Notes: generated by a model not told the origin, from the letters alone. A stretch of 64,000 nucleotides of DNA from an uncultured delta proteobacterium (GCA_963699755.1 CAVOVB010000003.1:544001-608000), one strand, 5' to 3'. Positions 15,522-29,449 are shown, numbered from the stretch's first letter. Numbers and translations are program-made.

Positions 15522-15755
15522 CCATTCTTGAGGGGGCGGCGATATAGGCTTCCCCGCTTGGGATCGCTCCGGGCTTGACCGGGTTTGGGAGCGGCCCTAA
15601 CGGGCGCTCAGGGAGAGGCGAAGTCGAGCGTACCCCAGCTCCCGCAAGCCGTGCCTGGATCTTGTTCGTCGAAAAATGACGAACCGACTTGTCCGACCCT
15701 CGAGCTTCGCCTAAATGGCGGCCGGTCGTTTAGAGGACTCAAGAGAAAACGCAGC

Positions 15756-16390
15756 ATGCAGATTTTCCCCCGCGAGTTGAACTACTTGCCCCTCGCGTTG
15801 GCCCTGGTGGCCGGCGGCCTCGGCGCAGGCGTGTTCATATTGTTCTGGGTCTACTTCACCCCTCCCAATCTGCAGGTTGGGTACACGCCGAAGCAACCCG
15901 TGGACTACAGCCACCGTTTGCACGCCGGAGAGCTTGGTCTGGACTGCCGCTACTGCCACTCCCAGGTCGAGCGCTCACACGAAGCGATGGTGCCTCCGAC
16001 GCAGACCTGCATGGGCTGTCACGCGGTGGTGCTCCCTGAATCGGCGAAGCTCGCGCCGGTGCGGCAGAGCTGGGAGACCGACGAGTCGGTCGCCTGGGTT
16101 CGCGTCCACCAGATTCCTGACCACGCGTTCTTCAACCATAGCGCTCACCTCCGCGCTGGCGTCGGTTGCGTTTCCTGCCACGGTCGGATCGACCAGATGG
16201 CGGTCGTAGGGGTGGTCGAGCCGATCGCGATGCAGTGGTGCTTGCAATGTCACCGCAATCCCGAGGAGCACATCCGGCCCAAGAGCGAGGTTACGAACAT
16301 GAAGTGGGAAGCTGACGAGGCTTGGATCGCCCAGCGCGCCGCGGTCGCCGCTGTTCTCAATCCACCTTTGCACTGTTCGGGGTGCCACCG

Positions 16391-16394
<4 letters not shown>
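15756..16394 (+). CDS. actA: Alternative complex III pentaheme cytochrome c subunit
   Basis: N-terminal TM; PKQPVDYSHRLHAG; five CxxCH motifs (CRYCH, CMGCH, CVSCH, CLQCH, CSGCH). Confidence 0.92.
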
Positions 16395-19504
<3,110 letters not shown>

Positions 19505-19510
19505 GAGCCG

Positions 19511-20971
19511 ATGAACTACGACGCACCAATCAAAGAACTCGGAGAGACGCCCCTTCTACCTGAAGGCACGACCGCCCACGACATCACCGAGACGATCGCA
19601 GGTGTCACGGAAAACCCCGCCCCTCGTGGTTGGTGGTTGCTGTTCCTGCTTTCGCTTTCCGGGCTCGGCGCAATGACCGCCGCGCTCGCGTACTTGTTCA
19701 TGCAAGGCGTGGGCGTTTGGGGCAACAACGCACCGGTCTACTGGGCCTGGGACATCACCAACTTCGTCTGGTGGATCGGTATCGGCCATGCGGGCACGCT
19801 GATCTCGGCTATTTTGTTCCTGTTCAGGCAGAAGTGGCGAACGAGCATCAACCGCTTCGCCGAGGCCATGACGGTCTTCGCCGTGCTTTGTGCCGGCTTG
19901 TTCCCGGCGATTCACACCGGTCGTCCCTGGTTCGACTATTACCTCTTCCCCATCCCGAACCAGATGGACATGTGGCCAAACTTCAAGAGCCCGCTCATGT
20001 GGGACGTCTTTGCGGTCAGCACCTACCTGACGATCAGTGTCATCTTCTGGCTCATCGGCTTGATTCCGGACTTCGCCACGCTGCGTGACCGGTCGAAGAA
20101 CCTGACCCGCAAACGTGTCTACGGTTCCTTGGCCCTCGGCTGGCGCGGCGCCCACCGGCACTGGCAACACTACGAGCGGGCCTACCTGATCTTCGCTGGC
20201 ATCTCGACGCCGCTGGTCCTTTCGGTCCACTCCGTCGTTTCGTTCGACTTCGCGACCTCGGTGGTTCCAGGCTGGCACACGACGATTTTCCCACCGTACT
20301 TCGTGGCCGGCGCCGTCTTCAGCGGCTTTGCGCTGGTGATGACCTTGATGTTGATCTGCCGCTCGATCTTCAAGCTGCACAACATCGTGACCATCCGGCA
20401 CCTGGACTTGATGAACAAGTTCATGCTCGGTACGGCGCTGCTGGTCGGCTACGCGTACGCGATGGAGTTCTTCATCGCCTGGTACTCCTCGAACCCCTAC
20501 GAGCAGTGGGTCTTCTTCCACAATCGCCTGGGCTGGGGCGAGCTCGACAGCAATGGAAATTGGGGTCCGCTCTGGTGGGCCTACTACGCGATGGTGTTCT
20601 GCAATGTCATCGTGCCACAGGTCTTTTGGTTCAAGCGCGCGCGCACCAGCGTTCCGATCATGCTCGTTGCGAGCGTTCTCATCAACATCGGGATGTGGTT
20701 CGAGCGCTTCGTCATCATCGTGACGTCGACCTACCAGGACTTCCTGCCGTCTTCCTGGGGCATGTTCCATCCGACCTCGATCGACATTCTGACCTACCTC
20801 GGTACCTTTGGATTGTTCTTCACCCTCTTCCTGCTCTTCGTTCGCTGGATTCCGATGATCGCCATTGCGGAGGTCAAGGGAAACTTGCCGGGGGCGCATC
20901 CCGACTTGCACGCCTTGGAGGCACATGACGAGGTACCGGACACACTGGTTGCGCCGGTCCCGGCGGAGTGA
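19511..20971 (+). CDS. actC: Alternative complex III NrfD-type quinol-binding subunit
   Basis: WDITNFVWWIGIGHAGTLISA, INRFAEAMT, SPLMWDVFAV, HTTIFPPYFVAGA. Confidence 0.95.
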   Translation: MNYDAPIKELGETPLLPEGTTAHDITETIAGVTENPAPRGWWLLFLLSLSGLGAMTAALAYLFMQGVGVWGNNAPVYWAWDITNFVWWIGIGHAGTLISAILFLFRQKWRTSINRFAEAMTVFAVLCAGLFPAIHTGRPWFDYYLFPIPNQMDMWPNFKSPLMWDVFAVSTYLTISVIFWLIGLIPDFATLRDRSKNLTRKRVYGSLALGWRGAHRHWQHYERAYLIFAGISTPLVLSVHSVVSFDFATSVVPGWHTTIFPPYFVAGAVFSGFALVMTLMLICRSIFKLHNIVTIRHLDLMNKFMLGTALLVGYAYAMEFFIAWYSSNPYEQWVFFHNRLGWGELDSNGNWGPLWWAYYAMVFCNVIVPQVFWFKRARTSVPIMLVASVLINIGMWFERFVIIVTSTYQDFLPSSWGMFHPTSIDILTYLGTFGLFFTLFLLFVRWIPMIAIAEVKGNLPGAHPDLHALEAHDEVPDTLVAPVPAE

Positions 20972-20979
20972 GGCGAATC

Positions 20980-21558
20980 ATGGCTAACAACACGAAAAAG
21001 CCCGCCCTTTACCTGGCCGAATACGACACGCCGAACGCCATTGCCGCCGCCGCGATGAAGGTGCGCGACGCGGGTTACAAGAACTGGGACTGCCACACCC
21101 CGTACGCCATGCACGGCATGGACGAGGCGATGGGGCTCAAGCCCACCCGGATCGGCATCATTTCGTTCATCTTCGGGATGATCGGCGTCGCGACGGCAGT
21201 GTTCATGATTCAGTACACCAATGCGTTCGACTTCAACCTCTTGAACATCGGCGCCGGCTACCCGCTCATCGTCGGCGGCAAGCCGCCCGGTGCATTTCCC
21301 TCGATGGTGCCGATCATGTTCGAGCTCGGGATTCTTCTCACCGGCTTCGCGACGCTGTTTGGCTTGCTCGGATTGATCAAGCTGCCGATGTACAACCATC
21401 CGATCTTCGAGTCGGACCGGTTCGAAGCTGCGACGGACGACAAGTACTTCATCTCGATCGAAGCGGGTGACCAGAAGTTCGACCTCGATCGAACCAAGGC
21501 GCTGCTCGAGGCCACCAATCCGACCTACCTCGAGCTCATCGAGGAGGAGGTGCAGTGA
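20980..21558 (+). CDS. actD: Alternative complex III subunit D (DUF3341)
   Basis: TPYAMHGMDEAMG, YPLIVGGKP, PIMFEL, two TM segments. Confidence 0.9.
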   Translation: MANNTKKPALYLAEYDTPNAIAAAAMKVRDAGYKNWDCHTPYAMHGMDEAMGLKPTRIGIISFIFGMIGVATAVFMIQYTNAFDFNLLNIGAGYPLIVGGKPPGAFPSMVPIMFELGILLTGFATLFGLLGLIKLPMYNHPIFESDRFEAATDDKYFISIEAGDQKFDLDRTKALLEATNPTYLELIEEEVQ

Positions 21559-22181
21559 TGCGTGTCCTTCTCATCGTACTGGCACTCACGACGCTGGCGG
21601 CGGCTTGTGTGGGTGGCGAGACCGGCGAGCCGCCGATCGTCGGTATCCGGAACATGTACAACCAGCCGCGCTACGATACCCAGGAGCGACAACCGTTCTT
21701 CGCCGATCAACGCTCGATGCGTCCTCAGGTCGAGGACACCGTGGCCCGAGAGATGGACATAGGCCTCGCCTGGACGACTGGTCGCTCGGTCCAGGGAGAC
21801 GCTTGGCTCATGGAAGTGCCGCGCGAGATCGTCGGTCGAGGGGGAGGCGCTAGCGCCTTTCTCGACCGTGGCGAGGAGCGTTACAACATCTACTGCGCCC
21901 CCTGCCATTCCGTCTCCGGCGACGGCAAGGGAATGGTTTCGCGGCGTGCCGGGGCCCTCGGCGCAACCGGGCTCGTCGCTCCGAGCTTCCACGATGACCG
22001 GCTGCGGCACATCCCAGACGGCCAGCTCTTCGCGACCATCAGCAACGGCGTGAGAAACATGCCGGCCTACGCCTTCAACATCCCGGTCGACGACCGATGG
22101 GCGATCGTTCAGTACGTCCGCGCGCTGCAGCTGAGCCAGGCGCCCGCGGCCACGGCGAAGAACACGGAGCCATCCCAGTGA
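21558..22181 (+). CDS. actE: Alternative complex III monoheme cytochrome c lipoprotein
   Basis: Lipobox LAAAC, NMYNQPRY, CAPCH, MPAY, DRWAIVQYVRALQ. Confidence 0.9.
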   Translation: MRVLLIVLALTTLAAACVGGETGEPPIVGIRNMYNQPRYDTQERQPFFADQRSMRPQVEDTVAREMDIGLAWTTGRSVQGDAWLMEVPREIVGRGGGASAFLDRGEERYNIYCAPCHSVSGDGKGMVSRRAGALGATGLVAPSFHDDRLRHIPDGQLFATISNGVRNMPAYAFNIPVDDRWAIVQYVRALQLSQAPAATAKNTEPSQ

Positions 22182-23581
22182 CAAAAGCAGACGACAACGA
22201 CTATCGAGTCGGAAACGACGGCATCTGGCAGCGGGCCTGGCTCGCACCTCTGGGGATCGCCATCTTGGGCGGCGTGGCAGCGGTCCTGACGGCCGATGCG
22301 GATCGGCTTGGTTACGCCTACCTCTTTGGCCTGTTTGTGACCGCAACCTTCATGCTCGGCGCTCTGTTCTTGGTGTTGGTCCAATTCCTCACCGCGTCTT
22401 ATTGGGGCGTATCGTCGCGACGCATCGTCGAGGTCGTCATGTCTGGCGCGCCGGTCGTGGCGCTCTTGGCGATTCCCTTCTTGGCGGGTGTCGCCCTCGG
22501 CAAAATCGACATCTACGACGAGTGGCAGAGCGTCTCGGCTCAGGGTGCGCACGGTGACGACCATGGGGATTTCGATTCGGGCTCTGACAACGAGAGCGAT
22601 CGCGCGGAGCACAGCGCGCTCGGGCTCGGCGCAAGCGTGGCGCAGGCGCAGGGCCATGGCGAGGACCACGATGAAGATGCCGTCGATCACGGCGATACAG
22701 CCGCTCACGATCAGGGGCACCGCCACACTTCCCAAGAAACCGCGCTTCACCACGAGATTCTCGAAAAGAAGAGCGGCTATCTCAACACCACTGGCTGGGT
22801 CGCGCGGGGCATCGCGTATTTCGTCATCTGGTGCTTGATCGCCTTGGCGTACTTCGGTTGGTCAAGGCGCCAAGACGTGGATCGCGACCCAAGGCACACC
22901 GTTCGGATGCAGAGCCTGGCGGCACCGTCCCTCATCCTCTTTGCTGGCTCGCTCACCTTCGCTGCGTTCGATTGGCTGATGTCGCTCGAGGCTACCTGGT
23001 TCTCGACCATTTTCGGCGTCGTCATCTTCGCCGGCTCGGCGGTCTCCATTCTCGCCCTCACGATCCTGATTGGCCTGAGCCTCTACAAGCGCGGCCTGGT
23101 GGGTGACGCGATCAACATCGAGCATTTCCACGACCTGAGCAGGCTCATGTTTGGTTTCGTTTGCTTCTGGGCCTACGTCCAGTTCTCGCAGTGGATGCTG
23201 ATCTGGTACGCGGGCATTCCCGAGGAGGCCACTTGGTTCATGAAGCGCTGGGACGGTGGCTGGAAGTTCGTCTCCTACGTGCTGATCTTCGGCCACTTCG
23301 TTGCGCCCTTCGTCCTGCTGATTTCGCGTGTGCAGAAGCGAGCGCTTCCCTGGCTCCAGGTGATGTGCTTCTGGGTGATCTTCATGCACATCGTCGACAT
23401 CTACTGGTTCATTCTGCCGCAGGCTGGCGGTTTCCATGTTCAGCTCGCGGATATGGGAGCACTCTTCTTCGTCGGCGGTCTCTTCTTCGCATATGTCTTC
23501 TGGCAGCTCGGGAGGGTCCCCTTGGTGCCGGTCGGCGATCCCAGGCTTCAGCGGAGCCTTCACCTCCACCAAATATACTGA
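22178..23581 (+). CDS. actF: Alternative complex III subunit F with His/Asp-rich insert
   Basis: Polytopic membrane protein; FDWLMSLE..WFSTIFG, HFHDL, FSQWMLIWY.GIPEE, PVGDPRL. Confidence 0.88.
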   Translation: MTKADDNDYRVGNDGIWQRAWLAPLGIAILGGVAAVLTADADRLGYAYLFGLFVTATFMLGALFLVLVQFLTASYWGVSSRRIVEVVMSGAPVVALLAIPFLAGVALGKIDIYDEWQSVSAQGAHGDDHGDFDSGSDNESDRAEHSALGLGASVAQAQGHGEDHDEDAVDHGDTAAHDQGHRHTSQETALHHEILEKKSGYLNTTGWVARGIAYFVIWCLIALAYFGWSRRQDVDRDPRHTVRMQSLAAPSLILFAGSLTFAAFDWLMSLEATWFSTIFGVVIFAGSAVSILALTILIGLSLYKRGLVGDAINIEHFHDLSRLMFGFVCFWAYVQFSQWMLIWYAGIPEEATWFMKRWDGGWKFVSYVLIFGHFVAPFVLLISRVQKRALPWLQVMCFWVIFMHIVDIYWFILPQAGGFHVQLADMGALFFVGGLFFAYVFWQLGRVPLVPVGDPRLQRSLHLHQIY

Positions 23582-23591
23582 GCGTGCACGG

Positions 23592-24239
23592 ATGAGTACG
23601 AAGCACAGAACACGATTTGAACCCCTCCGCTTCCTCCTCGCCGTTTCGACGTCGATGGTTCTTGGGATGGGCTGCGGCCAAAGCGATTCACCGAGGGCGC
23701 GCGTGAGCGCTGACGAGTACGAGATCATCAAGCAGCAGCAGGAGGAAGCCCTCCAAACCGGCACGATGCCTCTCGGCCAGGCAATGGCGGAGTACAGCTC
23801 CAAGCCCCGAGACCAGTTTGCTGCGCTTGCGCCAGAGCCGTCCGAGGACGAGTCGGCGCTCAACGGCTGGTCGTTCAAGGGCGCCGCTCCCATCGCGACG
23901 GGTGATGTCACCATGCCGCCCGAGTGCGTTGGTGGGGCAAACCCGGAAGCCTGTTGGGGCCAAAAGCTCAGCAACAGCAAGGGCTGCATGGCATGTCACT
24001 CGGTCGACGGCGTGAAGCAGCAACCTTGCCCGAACTGGAAGGGCCTCTTCGGAAGAGAACGGCCTCTGGTGAGCGGCGACACGGTCGTCGCCGACGAAGA
24101 GTACCTCACCAATTCGATCCTGAACTCCTGGGATCAGGTGGTTCAGGGCTACGGAAAGACGATGCCGCCGTACAATTTCCCCGAGCAGGAAATCGCGGCG
24201 TTGGTCGCCTACCTCAAGTCACTAGGAGAGGGCGGATGA
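23592..24239 (+). CDS. Monoheme cytochrome c lipoprotein resembling the C-terminal cytochrome c domain of caa3 subunit II
   Basis: Lipobox-like LGMGC; GCMACHSVDG...WKGLFG...VVADEEYL.NSI...VVQGY..MP. Confidence 0.82.
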   Translation: MSTKHRTRFEPLRFLLAVSTSMVLGMGCGQSDSPRARVSADEYEIIKQQQEEALQTGTMPLGQAMAEYSSKPRDQFAALAPEPSEDESALNGWSFKGAAPIATGDVTMPPECVGGANPEACWGQKLSNSKGCMACHSVDGVKQQPCPNWKGLFGRERPLVSGDTVVADEEYLTNSILNSWDQVVQGYGKTMPPYNFPEQEIAALVAYLKSLGEGG

Positions 24240-24889
24240 TGAGCAGATCCCGCGCCGCGACGGTGGTGGTCTTGTCGGCGCTACCGGTTCTACTGACGGC
24301 CTGCCAGGAGCCCAGCCCGGATACGGCTAGTCTTAGGTACAGCGAAGACCTCTACGACGGCTGCGTCCAGTGTCACGGCGCTAGGGGCGAGGGCAACCCC
24401 GAGGTCGGGGCGCCTTCGATTGCGGGCCTCGAGCGATGGTACGTGAAGAGGCAGCTCCGTGGCTTCAAAAAAGGCTACCGTGGCTTTCACCCTGAAGACG
24501 TCGCTGGGAAGCGAATGTATCCGATGGCCCGCGCGCTCGACACGGATCAGAAAGTGGACGTGGTCGCCAACTACGTCGCTTCCATGGAGCCAACCCATCC
24601 GGCCCCGACCCTCGAGGGCGGCAATCCGGAAACCGGAAAGATCTACTTCGCTGTCTGCGTGCAGTGCCACGGAGCGAATGCGCGAGGCAATCTGGACGAG
24701 TTTGGTCCTCCATTGGCAGGCGCAAGCGATTGGTACCTGCTCACGCAGCTGCAGAACTTCAAGGCCGGGGTACGTGGCACCCAGCCCGACGACGCCATGG
24801 GTGCCAAGATGCGCCCGTTTTCCATGACGCTTCCCACCGAGCAAGCGATGAAAGACGTCATCGCGTACATTGGCACTCTATCCGAGTAA
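24236..24889 (+). CDS. Diheme cytochrome c4-like lipoprotein
   Basis: Lipobox LTAC; two CVQCH motifs, each followed by P..AG...WY...QL..FK.G.RG and an axial Met. Confidence 0.9.
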   Translation: MMSRSRAATVVVLSALPVLLTACQEPSPDTASLRYSEDLYDGCVQCHGARGEGNPEVGAPSIAGLERWYVKRQLRGFKKGYRGFHPEDVAGKRMYPMARALDTDQKVDVVANYVASMEPTHPAPTLEGGNPETGKIYFAVCVQCHGANARGNLDEFGPPLAGASDWYLLTQLQNFKAGVRGTQPDDAMGAKMRPFSMTLPTEQAMKDVIAYIGTLSE

Positions 24890-24907: not shown

Positions 24908-25018
24908 ATGGCAGGCAAGACGCGGGATCCAGACAACGAGGCACATTTTTGGTGGAAGTGGACCATGATCGGGGCCGCCATCTATATCGGTGTCGTGTTC
25001 GCTTTCATTTTGAACTGA
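24908..25018 (+). CDS. 36-aa single-TM protein within the oxidase operon (absent from the ORF track)
   Basis: MAGKTRDPDNEAHFWWKWTMIGAAIYIGVVFAFILN*; GAGGG upstream; fills the gap between the c4 gene and coxB. Confidence 0.65.
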   Translation: MAGKTRDPDNEAHFWWKWTMIGAAIYIGVVFAFILN

Positions 25019-25034: not shown

Positions 25035-25775
25035 ATGCTTCAAGGAATTTACGACTTCATCAAGGGTATCTTCGAGCCGCTTGGCGATTACCTCATCGGT
25101 TCATCGGTCCCGGTAGCCTCGTCGTTCGCTGGGGACATCGACGCGCTCATTGCGCTCGTTGCCGTGTTCGTCGGCTTTTGGGCGCTTCTCGCCTACGCAG
25201 CGTTCTTCTTCTTGATCTTCCGCTTTCGGGCGCGAGAGGGGCATCGGGCGCAATACGTCACGGGGGAAGAGAAGGATCTCAAGCGATGGATCACCTATCC
25301 GCACGCAGCGATCATCCTTTGTGATCTGGTCATCGTCTTCATGGCGATCATGGTCTGGTACAATATCAAGCAGCGCCTGCCCGAGGCCGACAGCACCGTT
25401 CGAATCGTCGCGCAGCAATGGGCATGGAACTTCGTCCATCCCGGGCCTGACAACGAGCTCGACACCGATGACGACATCAATACTTTCAACGAGATGCATG
25501 TCCAAGAGGGCACGACCTATCACTACGAGCTCGTTTCCAAGGATGTCCTCCACGATTTCTCGGTGCCTGTGTTCCGTTTGAAGCAGGACGCTATCCCGGG
25601 CCGGGTCATGAAGGGCTGGTTCAAACCCACCCAGGCCGGCGAGTACGACATTCAGTGCGCCGAGATGTGTGGAATCGGGCACGGCATCATGGGCGCACGA
25701 ATCGTGGTCGAGACCCCTGAAGAACATGCGGCTTGGATGTCGCAGGGCAGCGCGGGCAAGCTTGCTTCCCGCTGA
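25035..25775 (+). CDS. coxB: Cytochrome c oxidase subunit II (CuA), without fused cytochrome c
   Basis: Two TMs, AQQWAWNF, DVLH, CAEMCGIGHGIM. Confidence 0.94.
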   Translation: MLQGIYDFIKGIFEPLGDYLIGSSVPVASSFAGDIDALIALVAVFVGFWALLAYAAFFFLIFRFRAREGHRAQYVTGEEKDLKRWITYPHAAIILCDLVIVFMAIMVWYNIKQRLPEADSTVRIVAQQWAWNFVHPGPDNELDTDDDINTFNEMHVQEGTTYHYELVSKDVLHDFSVPVFRLKQDAIPGRVMKGWFKPTQAGEYDIQCAEMCGIGHGIMGARIVVETPEEHAAWMSQGSAGKLASR

Positions 25776-25786
25776 ATGGAAAAGTC

Positions 25787-27517
25787 ATGGCTGAAGCAGG
25801 CACGATAGACACGCACGGCGCGCACGCGCACGACGCAGACCACGGGCACCACGAGCAGAGTTTCTTGAGCAAGTACATCTTCTCGACCGATCACAAGATC
25901 ATCGCGATGCAGTACATGTTCACCGGAATCGTCATGGCGCTGATAGGCGGGTACATGTCGTACGCGTTCCGCATGCAGTTGGCATTCCCAGGTGAAAGTG
26001 TCCCCGGCTACGGCGTCGTCTCACAGGGCGAGTACAACGCCTTGGTCACCAATCACGGGACGATCATGATTTTCTGGGTCGCCATGCCCATGCTGATCGC
26101 AGCCTTTGGCAACTACCTCATCCCGCTCATGATAGGCGCGGACGACATGGTGTTCCCGCGCATCAATCGCCTCTCGTATCAGATCTTCCTGATCAGCGCG
26201 ATCATTCTCATCGTTTCCTTTTTCGTTCCAGGTGGCGGCTTCGGCGGGGCCTGGACGTCCTATCCGCCGCTTTCGGCAAATGCGGAATACAACCTCACCC
26301 CGATGGGCGCGAGCCTGTGGCTCGTTGCCGTTGCGCTGGAGTTCGTGGCCTTCCTTCTCGGAGGCATCAATTTCATCACGACCCTCATGAATGCGCGCGC
26401 ACCCGGCATGAAGATGCACGACATCCCGATGGTACTGTGGATGATCGTCATCGCGAGCATCCTCTTCATGGCTTCGGTCGGTCCGCTCATTGCAGGAGCG
26501 GTCATGCTCTTCATGGATCAAGTGGTCGGCACCGGCTACTTCGACCCCGACCGTGGCGGCGATCCGGTTCTGTGGCAGCACCTCTTCTGGTTCTTCGGCC
26601 ACCCCGAGGTGTATGTCGTGCTCTTGCCGGCGATGGGGATCGTTGCCGAGATCATCTGCACCTTCGCCCGTAAGAAGCTCTTCAACTACAAGCTGATCCT
26701 CTACACCGCATTCGCGACCGGGATCATCAGCTTCTTCGTCTGGGCCCACCACCAGTTCGTCGCCGGGATCGACCCGCGCATGGCGAACATCTTCACCATC
26801 ACCACCCTGATCATCTCGATTCCCATCGCGGAGATGCTCTTCCTCTACATCGCCACGCTTTACGGCGGATCTATCCGTCTCACCACTCCGATGCTCTGGG
26901 CCTTGTCGTTCATCGCCGAATTCCTCATCGGTGGCATCACCGGCATCTTCCTGGGCGCGAGTGGCTCGGACATCTACTTCCACGACACGTATTTCGTGCT
27001 CGCTCACTTCCACTATACGTTCTTCCCGATCGCCATCATCGGGTTCTTCGCTGGAATAACCTACTGGTTCCCCAAGATGTTCGGACGAATGATGAACGAG
27101 ACGCTCGGCAAGATTCACTTTTGGGGCACGATCATCGCCTTCAACTTCATCTTCATCCCGCTCTTCATCCTGGGCGCCGCAGGTCAGCACAGGCGGATTT
27201 ACAACTTCCAGAACTTCCCCGACCTTGCGGGTATGCAGGACCTCAGGGTGATCGCGACGAGCGCCTTGCTCGTCATGCTCACCTTCCAGGTCATCTTCCT
27301 GTTCAACTTCGTGCACAGCCTCTTCAAGGGCAAGCCCGCCGGCAAAAATCCGTGGAAGGCCAACACGCTCGAGTGGACCGCGGACTCGCCGCCGCCGCAT
27401 GGCAACTGGCCCGAGCTCCCGAACTGCTACAGAGGCCCCTACGAGTACAGCGTGCCAGGCCGCGAAGAAGACTACTGGCCGCAGGACGTCCCACCGGACA
27501 CCGCCCCCGCCGAATGA
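25787..27517 (+). CDS. coxA: Cytochrome c oxidase subunit I, A1-type motif
   Basis: STDHK, HGTIMIF, WFFGHPEVY, WAHH, HDTYFVLAHFHY, RR. Confidence 0.97.
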   Translation: MAEAGTIDTHGAHAHDADHGHHEQSFLSKYIFSTDHKIIAMQYMFTGIVMALIGGYMSYAFRMQLAFPGESVPGYGVVSQGEYNALVTNHGTIMIFWVAMPMLIAAFGNYLIPLMIGADDMVFPRINRLSYQIFLISAIILIVSFFVPGGGFGGAWTSYPPLSANAEYNLTPMGASLWLVAVALEFVAFLLGGINFITTLMNARAPGMKMHDIPMVLWMIVIASILFMASVGPLIAGAVMLFMDQVVGTGYFDPDRGGDPVLWQHLFWFFGHPEVYVVLLPAMGIVAEIICTFARKKLFNYKLILYTAFATGIISFFVWAHHQFVAGIDPRMANIFTITTLIISIPIAEMLFLYIATLYGGSIRLTTPMLWALSFIAEFLIGGITGIFLGASGSDIYFHDTYFVLAHFHYTFFPIAIIGFFAGITYWFPKMFGRMMNETLGKIHFWGTIIAFNFIFIPLFILGAAGQHRRIYNFQNFPDLAGMQDLRVIATSALLVMLTFQVIFLFNFVHSLFKGKPAGKNPWKANTLEWTADSPPPHGNWPELPNCYRGPYEYSVPGREEDYWPQDVPPDTAPAE

Positions 27518-27527
27518 CGAGGCCGCG

Positions 27528-28106
27528 ATGAGCATGACGAGACCCATAGCAACGACCAGAACCGCCACGGGCATTCCAACGGGCAAGCTCGCCGTTTGGT
27601 GGGTCATCGGCTCGGAGATCGTGATTTTCGGAGGCTTGCTCGCCTCCTATGTCATGCATCGGCTGGGTCACCCCGAGTGGGCCGAATACGCATCCCACAC
27701 GAACACTTGGTTTGGCGGCGCCAACACCTTCGTGCTGCTGACCTCATCGCTCTTTGCCGTGCTCGCGCACCATGCTGCCGTGCATGGGGACGGAAAGACT
27801 GCGGCCAAGTGGCTCCTCGGGACCTGCGCGGGGGGCTTGCTCTTCCTCTGCATCAAGGCGGTCGAGTGGACGGGCGAAATTCAGCACGGCTACACGATCA
27901 CGGCCAACGGCTTTTGGAGCTTCTACTACACTGCCGCTGGGCTTCACGCGCTCCACGTCATCGCGGGCTGCATCATCATGCTGATCATCGCGAAAGAAGC
28001 CTGGGCCGGCAAAGAGCTTCATCGTGTCGAGCTCATTGGCATCTACTGGCACTTCGTCGATATCGTGTGGATTTTCCTCTTCCCGCTGCTCTACATCGCC
28101 AAGTGA
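27528..28106 (+). CDS. coxC: Cytochrome c oxidase subunit III (short form)
   Basis: WWVIGSEIVIFGGL, NTFVLLTSS, GLHALHV, YWHFVDIVWIFLFPLLY. Confidence 0.92.
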   Translation: MSMTRPIATTRTATGIPTGKLAVWWVIGSEIVIFGGLLASYVMHRLGHPEWAEYASHTNTWFGGANTFVLLTSSLFAVLAHHAAVHGDGKTAAKWLLGTCAGGLLFLCIKAVEWTGEIQHGYTITANGFWSFYYTAAGLHALHVIAGCIIMLIIAKEAWAGKELHRVELIGIYWHFVDIVWIFLFPLLYIAK

Positions 28107-28118
28107 GGATGGACGATC

Positions 28119-28565
28119 ATGGCTGAACAGCAAGACCACGCACAAGACCACACAGGAGATCACAGCCAGGCCTTCTACTTGAAGATCTGGGGCATCTTGC
28201 TCGTGCTTCTCATCCTGAGCATTCTGGGGCCGATCGTTGCGCCGCACCTGGCGTTCGGTTTCCTAAAGGCATGGATGATTACTTTGATGACGGCGTTCGG
28301 AATCGCGGTCGTCAAGGCGTATCTCGTGGCCGCGAACTTCATGCACCTGAACATCGAGAAGAAATACATCTCGTACCTGCTTGCCACCATGTTGATGCTC
28401 ATGCTCCTGTTCTTTGCGGGCACCTCTCCCGACGTCATGAAGCACAAGGGCCAGAACTGGGAAAACGTCGCAGCGGAGACGGAAATCGAGCGAGCGCTCG
28501 AGGCCGAGGGCGCTGCGGCTGCACACGGCGAGCACGCCGGGGAACATCCAACGACCGAGCACTGA
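28119..28565 (+). CDS. Cytochrome c oxidase subunit IV family protein
   Basis: YLKIWGILLVL, IAVVKAYLVAANFMHL; three TMs. Confidence 0.85.
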   Translation: MAEQQDHAQDHTGDHSQAFYLKIWGILLVLLILSILGPIVAPHLAFGFLKAWMITLMTAFGIAVVKAYLVAANFMHLNIEKKYISYLLATMLMLMLLFFAGTSPDVMKHKGQNWENVAAETEIERALEAEGAAAAHGEHAGEHPTTEH

Positions 28566-28583: not shown

Positions 28584-29174
28584 ATGCCTGATGACGCACT
28601 AGGGCGCCCGTACGGCGTGCCAACCAGGCGCGAGCCTGTCGTTCCAAATGGCGTGCTGGGAATGCTGATCTTCGTTGCGACGGAGATCATGTTCTTCTCT
28701 GGGCTGATCAGCGCTTTCGTCATCGGGAAGAGCAATGCAATCGGGGGCTGGCCGCCTCCGGGGCAGCCTCGTTTGCCTATCGAAGAGACTGCCCTCAACA
28801 CCGGGGCGCTCCTCGCGAGCGGCATCGCGCTCTATTTCGCCAACCGCGCGTTCAAGAACGACTCTCCGAGCACGAAGCGACTTCTCGCGCTCGCAATCGG
28901 CCTTGGGGGCTTCTTCGTGCTCTTTCAGGGTGCGGAATGGGTTGCGCTGATCGGCGAGGGGCTGACGATCACCTCCGGGCAGCTGGGCGGCTACTTTTAT
29001 CTGCTCGTCGGGACCCACGCGCTCCACGTGGTCGCAGGCTTCATCATCCTATTGTACACGTATCAGAAGCTCTCCCATCACGACCTCGATCGCTTCACCT
29101 TCTGGCCCGCGCAGATATTCTGGTACTTCGTGGTTGCGGTTTGGCCGATCCTCTACTGGGAGGTGTACCTTTGA
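28584..29174 (+). CDS. Second subunit III-like protein
   Basis: GMLIFVATEIMFFSGLIS, LNTGALLAS, QGAEW, GTHALHV, FWYFVV.VWP. Confidence 0.85.
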   Translation: MPDDALGRPYGVPTRREPVVPNGVLGMLIFVATEIMFFSGLISAFVIGKSNAIGGWPPPGQPRLPIEETALNTGALLASGIALYFANRAFKNDSPSTKRLLALAIGLGGFFVLFQGAEWVALIGEGLTITSGQLGGYFYLLVGTHALHVVAGFIILLYTYQKLSHHDLDRFTFWPAQIFWYFVVAVWPILYWEVYL

Positions 29175-29188
29175 TTCGTCTGGCTCGG

Positions 29189-29449
29189 ATGAGCGTTGCG
29201 CTCGCGACCGTGGCGGTCGCTTGGGCCGCCGACCTGGTCTATGCTTGTCCCTCCTGCGCCTCGCCGCTCGAGGAGAATCGGCAAGCGTTCGTCGATACGA
29301 CCATCTTCCTCACGGTGGTTCCGCTCACGATGATAGGCGGTTTCGTCTGGTGGCTTCGCCGCAAGATTCGCGATCAGGATGAGCCGCCCGAGATCGCCGT
29401 TCCTCACAACCTCCTGCGTGATGCCGGCCGGTTCTCGAAGGGACGCTGA
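29189..29449 (+). CDS. Small membrane protein with signal-peptide-like N-terminus and CxxC (ACPSC)
   Basis: Hydrophobic N-terminus, ACPSC, one further TM; last gene of the oxidase operon; alternative TTG start at 29171. Confidence 0.65.
   Translation: MSVALATVAVAWAADLVYACPSCASPLEENRQAFVDTTIFLTVVPLTMIGGFVWWLRRKIRDQDEPPEIAVPHNLLRDAGRFSKGR

Follow-up and report, generated by a model that had tools for sequence, protein, structure and literature searches.

Carboxylate and histidine residues as a candidate substitute for the K-channel in a multi-phylum lineage of A1-derived oxidases

The need of A-type oxidases for two proton channels and the function of the lysine in the K-channel are long-standing questions whose answers rest mostly on mutants of a few model enzymes, in which the K362M substitution nearly stops turnover (residues are numbered after Rhodobacter sphaeroides unless stated otherwise). 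The D- and K-channels have been assigned their usual roles (PMC8361435; 10.1101/2022.04.13.488242), and the K entrance of the bovine oxidase lies at helix 2 of subunit II (10.1101/2022.04.13.488242). Several A-family oxidases without the K-channel have been published (10.1101/2020.03.01.968255; PMC8239418; a Ferrigenium preprint, 10.64898/2026.01.22.701106), so that loss of the channel as such, which a preliminary description of the present locus had noted, is already on record. The enzymes of acidophilic iron oxidisers, Thioclava and Ferrigenium have a hydrophobic residue at 362, lack the entry Glu of subunit II and keep the D-channel; those of the iron oxidisers and Thioclava also keep T359 and carry two extra N-terminal helices, features not stated for Ferrigenium. 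The "A1 KC channel" oxidases of Elusimicrobia, Ca. Calescamantes and Methylacidiphilum are A1 enzymes with Ser327 and no K362 (PMC8239418), and the A1 subtype a-III of the Burkholderia, Flavobacterium and Ralstonia type (PMC6431628 and PMC8879329) has two COX3 genes and keeps the K-channel (PMC8239418, Table S1 and K-channel table; K362 is also present in L250 and L251).

We analysed a window of 64,000 nucleotides from an uncultured delta proteobacterium (GCA_963699755.1, CAVOVB010000003.1:544001-608000), in which the following genes surround an oxidase that has two COX3 genes like a-III, lacks the K-channel that a-III retains, and resembles the "A1 KC channel" enzymes in having Ser327 and no K362.

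15585..23581, + strand: alternative complex III genes, namely an ActA-like multiheme cytochrome, ActB, ActC, ActD, ActE and ActF (ORFs, families)
23586..24239, + strand: monoheme cytochrome c (PF00034)
24236..24889, + strand: diheme cytochrome c (PF00034, two stretches)
24908..25018, + strand: 36-aa single-helix ORF between the diheme cytochrome c and subunit II
25035..25775, + strand: subunit II with a complete CuA site (alignment)
25787..27517, + strand: subunit I, A1-type (GHPEVY), 576 aa (alignment, predicted model)
27528..28106, + strand: subunit III homolog a (family match)
28119..28565, + strand: subunit IV (family match)
28584..29174, + strand: subunit III homolog b (family match)
29192..29449, + strand: small membrane protein with a CxxC motif (no Pfam match)

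The order is therefore that of the list: alternative complex III, two cytochromes c, subunit II, subunit I, IIIa, IV and IIIb. Within the first block, ActD matches PF11821 and QrcB/C-like families are also found, while we take two of the genes to be ActA and ActF from their position and CXXCH motifs. This block lies directly 5' of the oxidase operon and adjoins it in close relatives and, elsewhere, in a minority of loci, and the monoheme cytochrome c occurs mainly alongside it in the neighbourhood comparison; the alternative complex III genes are outside the conserved oxidase cassette. The diheme cytochrome c, which precedes subunit II in most loci of the clade defined below, is the likely electron donor of the oxidase. 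Possibly the 36-aa ORF is an unannotated small subunit; a crude pattern finds a small hydrophobic ORF ahead of subunit II in 22 of 74 loci, one of the 22 looking unrelated. Subunits IIIa, IV and IIIb belong to the conserved cassette, and the doublet of PF00510 (COX3) genes is kept in the compared neighbourhoods, in the order III-IV-III here and III-III-IV in the a-III-like L251. The CxxC membrane protein 3' of the cassette, a possible copper-handling or assembly factor, has a match in 58 of the 69 loci having enough downstream DNA, and 59 of 60 matches contain the motif. Contigs of relatives, mostly 85-95% alike, span the operon in four RNA libraries, which is no proof of transcription.

Subunit I is about 41% identical to the R. 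sphaeroides enzyme. Its alignment to 1m56 has no gaps from H284 to H421 (helices VI-X) and a constant offset of 12 (19 in subunit II), and its AlphaFold model (pLDDT 90.4) superposes on R. sphaeroides subunit I with Z 52 and an rmsd of 1.3 Å over 506 residues. The residues at issue are located as follows, window residues being given first and R. sphaeroides positions in brackets.

25278-25280, 25293-25295, 25302-25304 and 25323-25325, + strand: subunit II helix 2, L82 (E101 position), T87, H90 and D97
26339..26353, + strand: upper D-channel, helix IV, E185 (S197), A188 (S200) and F189 (S201)
26645..26647, + strand: A287 (S299), from the gapless alignment
26705..26779, + strand: helix VII ladder T307, T311 and S315 (319, 323 and 327), Q323 (M335) and R331 (343)
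26804..26845, + strand: helix VIII, T340 (T352), S344 (A356), I347 (T359; codon 26825-26827), E349 (I361; codon 26831-26833), M350 (K362; codon 26834-26836) and L353 (S365)
26918..26920, + strand: helix IX Glu, E378 (L390)

For comparison, we assembled a clade of 188 loci from 219 pooled loci by removing 9 that belong to the host genome and 22 with less than 64% identity; these collapse to 130 at 90% identity, and clade counts overstate their support because kin are not independent. Compared with R. sphaeroides aa3 (1m56; K362M mutant 3om3), the window enzyme shares the fold, the metal ligands, Y288, E286, D132, the Asn gate, the Arg pair and CuA. Specifically, the six His ligands and the cross-link Tyr of helix VI that mark A1 enzymes (H90, H272, H321, H322, H407, H409 and Y276 in window numbers) are invariant in the alignment of homologs, E286 of GHPEVY and Y288 are each found in 188/188 loci, and D132, N121, N139 and N207 reach 100% in covered loci; R481/R482 are also kept in the window protein. 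The catalytic and D-channel residues that the preliminary description listed as retained are thus borne out by alignment and conservation. The K-channel is gone by the same measures: K362 and T359 are each found in 0/186 loci and S299 in 0/188, and position 365 is mostly non-polar. The replacements T359I, K362M and S299A and the new Glu at 361, all reported in that description, agree with the gapless alignment codon for codon. A shifted lysine was rejected as a stand-in for K362, since positions 350-370 hold no Lys in any of the 188 loci. The Tyr, Thr and Ser given for ba3 at S299, K362 and T359 (PMC8239418, K-channel table) are likewise absent, these positions being Ala, Met and Ile here. The K-channel set of an A1 O2 reductase (K362, T359, S299 and subunit II E101) is missing from the window enzyme, and we file the enzyme as an A1-derived variant because it falls outside the two-channel definition of the A family (PMC11214002). 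A heme b at the oxygen site was considered as an explanation for the loss of T359 and found no support: ctaA and ctaB are present in the host genome, and heme A synthase (ctaA) was found in 10/10 other genomes tested. Q471L does not diagnose heme type, since K362 enzymes vary at 471 too.

The motif is widely distributed. A search with subunit I gave 7997 matches, and in the best 120 of these, where residues were read, the same motif recurs in 120/120, with K362 in 0/120, Ile at 359 in 120/120 and E361 in 118/120. By record label, the 188 loci come from Myxococcota, Gemmatimonadota, Verrucomicrobiota, Acidobacteriota, SAR324, Eisenbacteria, Bdellovibrionota, Nitrospinota and Spirochaetales among others, the region around L030 (Verrucomicrobiota) being covered by a metagenome scan; Pelagicoccus sp. 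SDUM812002 and Puniceicoccaceae K14 are members not labelled as metagenome bins. The dN/dS ratio is 0.035-0.055 against seven close relatives (7 pairs), and the oxidase is under strong purifying selection. An assembly error or a decaying gene might be suspected from the 9% contamination of the host assembly and its duplicated cbb3, cNOR and nqrA loci, but the motif in the best 120/120 homologs and in 188 loci across phyla, together with a dN/dS of about 0.05, reduces this reading to a negligible probability; the motif is not a peculiarity of one assembly. The duplicates in the host assembly (C7:244877-247222, C1:1755661-1758006, C1:1814672-1816039 and C1:403985-405352 of G000) comprise a pair of almost identical cbb3 CcoNO fusions, a pair of cNOR loci and a duplicated nqrA, and with the contamination they may reflect a mix of two strains. 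Separately, a metagenome bin labelled Klebsiella pneumoniae carries the cassette (L031); this locus branches with Myxococcota-like loci and is probably mislabelled or mis-binned.

The genomic setting points to a working enzyme. In the host genome, the window enzyme is the only A-family oxidase, besides two cbb3 and two cNOR loci. We sampled 150 genomes of the host's phylum, 49 of which were chosen by score for direct search, and a match of at least 70% identity places the clade enzyme in at least 40 of the 150. In seven genomes (G050, G085, G104, G110, G138, G139 and G145, 90-100% complete) it is the sole PF00115 match, motifs having been read. The bd oxidase was searched for in 24 genomes and the alternative oxidase in 11; neither was found in those seven incomplete genomes by a search that may miss weak matches. 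G016 and G034 were left out of the sole-oxidase count for a weak alternative-oxidase match, and G154 for want of a stated completeness. The weak matches themselves (G016:C23:230644-231174 and G034:C39:82601-83125; E about 1e-9, 245-aa frame) are in the host's genus. From its sequence and context, the clade enzyme is probably an active O2 reductase. Because it is probably active, and because its changes are concerted, conserved and under purifying selection, another proton supply is needed; the suggestion that the K-channel has been rewired, with K362, T359 and S299 replaced, fits these results. Our preferred reading, an active cytochrome c:O2 reductase of A1 descent whose K-channel was replaced and not simply lost, we hold with slightly less than even confidence.

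K362M enzymes keep peroxidase-type chemistry. An enzyme that uses another acceptor (NO or peroxide) or serves as a sensor would have no need of a K-channel, and Q335, beside a CuB ligand, is invariant in the clade (188/188, after the CuB His pair) and found in 0/140 distant representatives. This proposal is nonetheless very improbable: the three CuB His and the cross-link Tyr are kept, loss of that Tyr, the mark of heme-copper NO reductases (PMC11214002), being absent from all 188 loci, the host genome has separate cNOR genes, and seven genomes would be left with no detected O2 reductase.

Sodium coupling was raised by the preliminary description as altered ion coupling, and Na+ pumping by a cbb3 oxidase is known. 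In such a scheme, new carboxylates (E197 with E286, or E361 with E390) would bind Na+, either pumped or as a counter-ion; several new buried carboxylates do lie near Ser/Thr, and nqrA exceeds the cut-off in 6/11 genomes tested, the host included. However, nqrA is below the cut-off in the other 5/11, including four of the seven sole-oxidase genomes, and in the F-type c subunits the sequence is ES[LI], lacking the Thr that belongs to their Na+ motif. Record labels and isolate names point to non-marine as well as marine sources. As far as nqrA and the c subunit serve as proxies, the idea finds no support, and we consider it improbable, though somewhat less so than a different acceptor.

New polar residues accompany the loss of the K-channel. 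In helix VIII, S356 is present in 186/186 loci and E361 in 176/186, with T352 retained in 186/186; helix VII carries T/S319 (188/188), T323 (175/188), S327 (186/188) and R343 (186/186), and an acid stands at 390 in helix IX in 159/183 loci, being absent in 24/183. In subunit II, the CuA ligands H173, C208, C212, H216 and M219 are invariant and E210 nearly so, and helix 2 has gained a His at 109 (H90, 171/174 loci) and an Asp at 116 (D97, 174/174). The entry Glu, which had been described as lost, is indeed Leu in the window protein (the register that equates L82 with E101 is anchored on G77, W85 and P89, and the phmmer alignment has a one-residue gap here), but Glu occupies this position in 50/175 clade loci, so its loss is no invariant of the clade. 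From helix periodicity, covariation and the known architecture of such enzymes, a common face would hold E361 and E390 together with the His and Asp of subunit II.

The D-channel is altered as well. D132, N121, N139, N207 and E286 are retained, as described earlier, but the upper part, which is lined by S197, S200 and S201 in described enzymes (PMC10341450 and 10.1101/040717), is not: S197E and S201F are each found in 185/185 loci and S200A in 180/185, while an acid at 197 is found in 2/130 covered distant representatives. One may ask whether all chemical and pumped protons enter through D132 and E286, with E197 as a second proton store or branch that feeds the reductive phase, the roles of E361, E390 and the two subunit II residues (His and Asp) being structural or electrostatic. 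Such a mode is implied for the K-less oxidases of iron oxidisers (10.1101/2020.03.01.968255), the lower D-channel residues and E286 are invariant, and E197 is present in 185/185 clade loci and in 6/6 loci of a K-less sister group, including members without E361. Against it, the serine zone is lost (S200A, S201F) and not enhanced, and other K-less lineages that have no E197 share S356 and an acid in subunit II, which indicates the K side. Supply by the D-channel alone is accordingly an unlikely reading, albeit one of real weight. S201F was also examined as a clade-specific block of the D-channel and rejected, as F201 occurs in the K362-bearing P0201 and P0265.

Trees place these changes in order. 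In IQ-TREE (34 rows; FastTree, 107 rows), a K-less group with E197, F201, Q335 and S356 has support 99/97 and holds the main clade (100/100) together with the sister loci. The six sister loci lack K362, E361 and E390, and the four having subunit II lack its His; the subunit II Asp and R343 are kept, as is E197 (6/6). E361 is thus a later addition and not the basic fix, and E361, E390 and the subunit II His are dispensable without K362, as the K-less sisters lack all three. Distant K-less lineages have no E197 and do have S356 and a mid-helix acid in subunit II: S356 is found in 23/31 distant representatives whose residue 362 is none of Lys, Gln and His versus 1/88 with K362, and the mid-helix-2 acid in 8/8 K-less loci outside the clade (four of them sisters) versus 1/12 K362 loci. 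K362 is missing in 52/140 distant representatives, the sample being skewed toward the query. Among relatives that bear K362, the closest named ones seen are of a-III type, at 45% identity, near the K-less group in a poorly settled region of the tree. L124-L126, which have no E197, Q335, E361 or E390, branch beside the K-less group with weak support (80/72), and by residue pattern only they match the Elusimicrobia "A1 KC channel" type of PMC8239418. A basal intermediate position of L212 was seen in FastTree and is unsupported in IQ-TREE.

Losses of E361 within the main clade bear on its role. Ten clade loci lack it, and nine of the ten, in three lineages, have a neighbouring acid. All seven E361I loci have Glu at subunit II 87 (106), a Glu otherwise found only in L056; L094 combines E361Q with subunit II His90 changed to Asp, L213 combines E361T with Glu at 362, and L212 has no acid near 361. 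Since the seven E361I loci form one Verrucomicrobiota branch (FastTree), these are three compensation events and not nine. Overall, an acid at 361, 362, subunit II 87 or subunit II 90 is present in 171/172 loci having both subunits, and no locus lacks both E361 and an acid at 390, an observation that is weak by itself given 10 and 24 losses. Rescue on three separate occasions suggests a single carboxylate site where helix VIII meets subunit II helix 2. The Glu-based alternative route that had been proposed is thereby supported in part: an acid near 361 appears to matter, as it is usually replaced nearby upon loss, but E361 itself is not the basic fix, the K-less sister group having none.

We return to the preferred reading, a replaced K-channel. 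Judged from residues and their covariation, a substitute route along the interface of subunits I and II may bring the reductive-phase protons to Tyr288 while E197 retunes E286, an account to which we give not quite even weight. Electrons would pass from the diheme cytochrome c, here fed by the alternative complex III, to CuA and the low-spin heme. One or two protons of the reductive half-cycle, which normally travel via K362 and T359 to Tyr288, would run in the groove that helices VIII and IX form with helix 2 of subunit II. There E361 and E390, paired with the subunit II His, could form a protonatable relay, and the proton would be passed on to Tyr288 by the Asp of subunit II, S356, T352 and the Thr/Ser ladder of helix VII. 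The D-channel would still feed E286, and E197 beside it would shift the pKa of E286 and probably the pumping stoichiometry. The Glu-His pair could also be a structural salt bridge. That a large, multi-phylum A-type lineage rebuilt its second proton pathway from carboxylates and a His that helices VIII/IX share with helix 2 of subunit II, together with a second Glu next to E286, remains a tentative proposal.

The same residues would admit an uncoupled or low-yield enzyme, in which O2 is reduced, few or no protons are pumped, and some chemical protons come from the outer (P) side via E197/E286 or via the subunit II Asp, R343 and Q335. The last three lie in the outer membrane half by sequence position and are common to the sister group, and Ser-to-Asp at 197 is reported to abolish pumping in R. 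sphaeroides (PMC7341133). What one substitution does in another enzyme may not hold for a co-evolved site, though; the whole lower D-channel is invariant, as is E286, and in the seven genomes where no other oxidase was found a low yield would presumably be costly. We regard uncoupling as rather unlikely, and it can be combined with the interface route.

Within the searched literature, three features appear to be new: the residues substituted in the two channels and in subunit II, the compensation across subunits, and the genomes in which this is the sole oxidase found. Ile at T359 with Met at K362 is in no row of the PMC8239418 K-channel table, compared by its listed residues, and the clade's motif words are absent from the available supplements of PMC8239418 and the searchable ones of PMC11214002; no description of the clade, E197, E361 or the subunit II His/Asp was found in the literature searched, which subscription papers may extend. 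The lineage amounts to a natural, selected K362M/T359I/S299A enzyme that also has an acid at 197, where Ser-to-Asp uncouples a model enzyme by the above report, and it provides a natural test of other modes of proton delivery. Because it is common and has members not labelled as metagenome bins, the two-channel and lysine questions become testable at the bench, and the energy yield of its oxidase bears on metabolic models of the carriers. If the interface route is correct, it would be a channel type distinct from D, K and the B/C-type analogs, and a proton-pumping A-type enzyme would need no Lys in the reductive half-cycle.

Some further loci and residues were observed along the way. L127 (G019:C3), P0145 and P0193 represent a further K-less lineage of A1 type, which has S356 and, in helix 2 of subunit II, an Asp; the genome holding L127 also carries a sister-group enzyme. 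L250 (NZ_CP141185.1) is an a-III-like subunit I on a Hymenobacter plasmid, where the annotation shows no further oxidase subunit within 5 kb. In helix X of subunit I, the clade reads TFFPI after the heme ligands (window residues 411-415), and the usual residues at 426 and 423 are replaced by an invariant Pro and by Thr, respectively, which may alter the helix near the low-spin heme. Further fixed differences from K362 enzymes, at window residues 128, 132, 155, 223, 232 and 245, are an Arg adjoining the Asn gate, W144Q, G171A (neighbouring W172), and the replacement of Thr by Ala, of Pro by Gly and of Arg by Gln.
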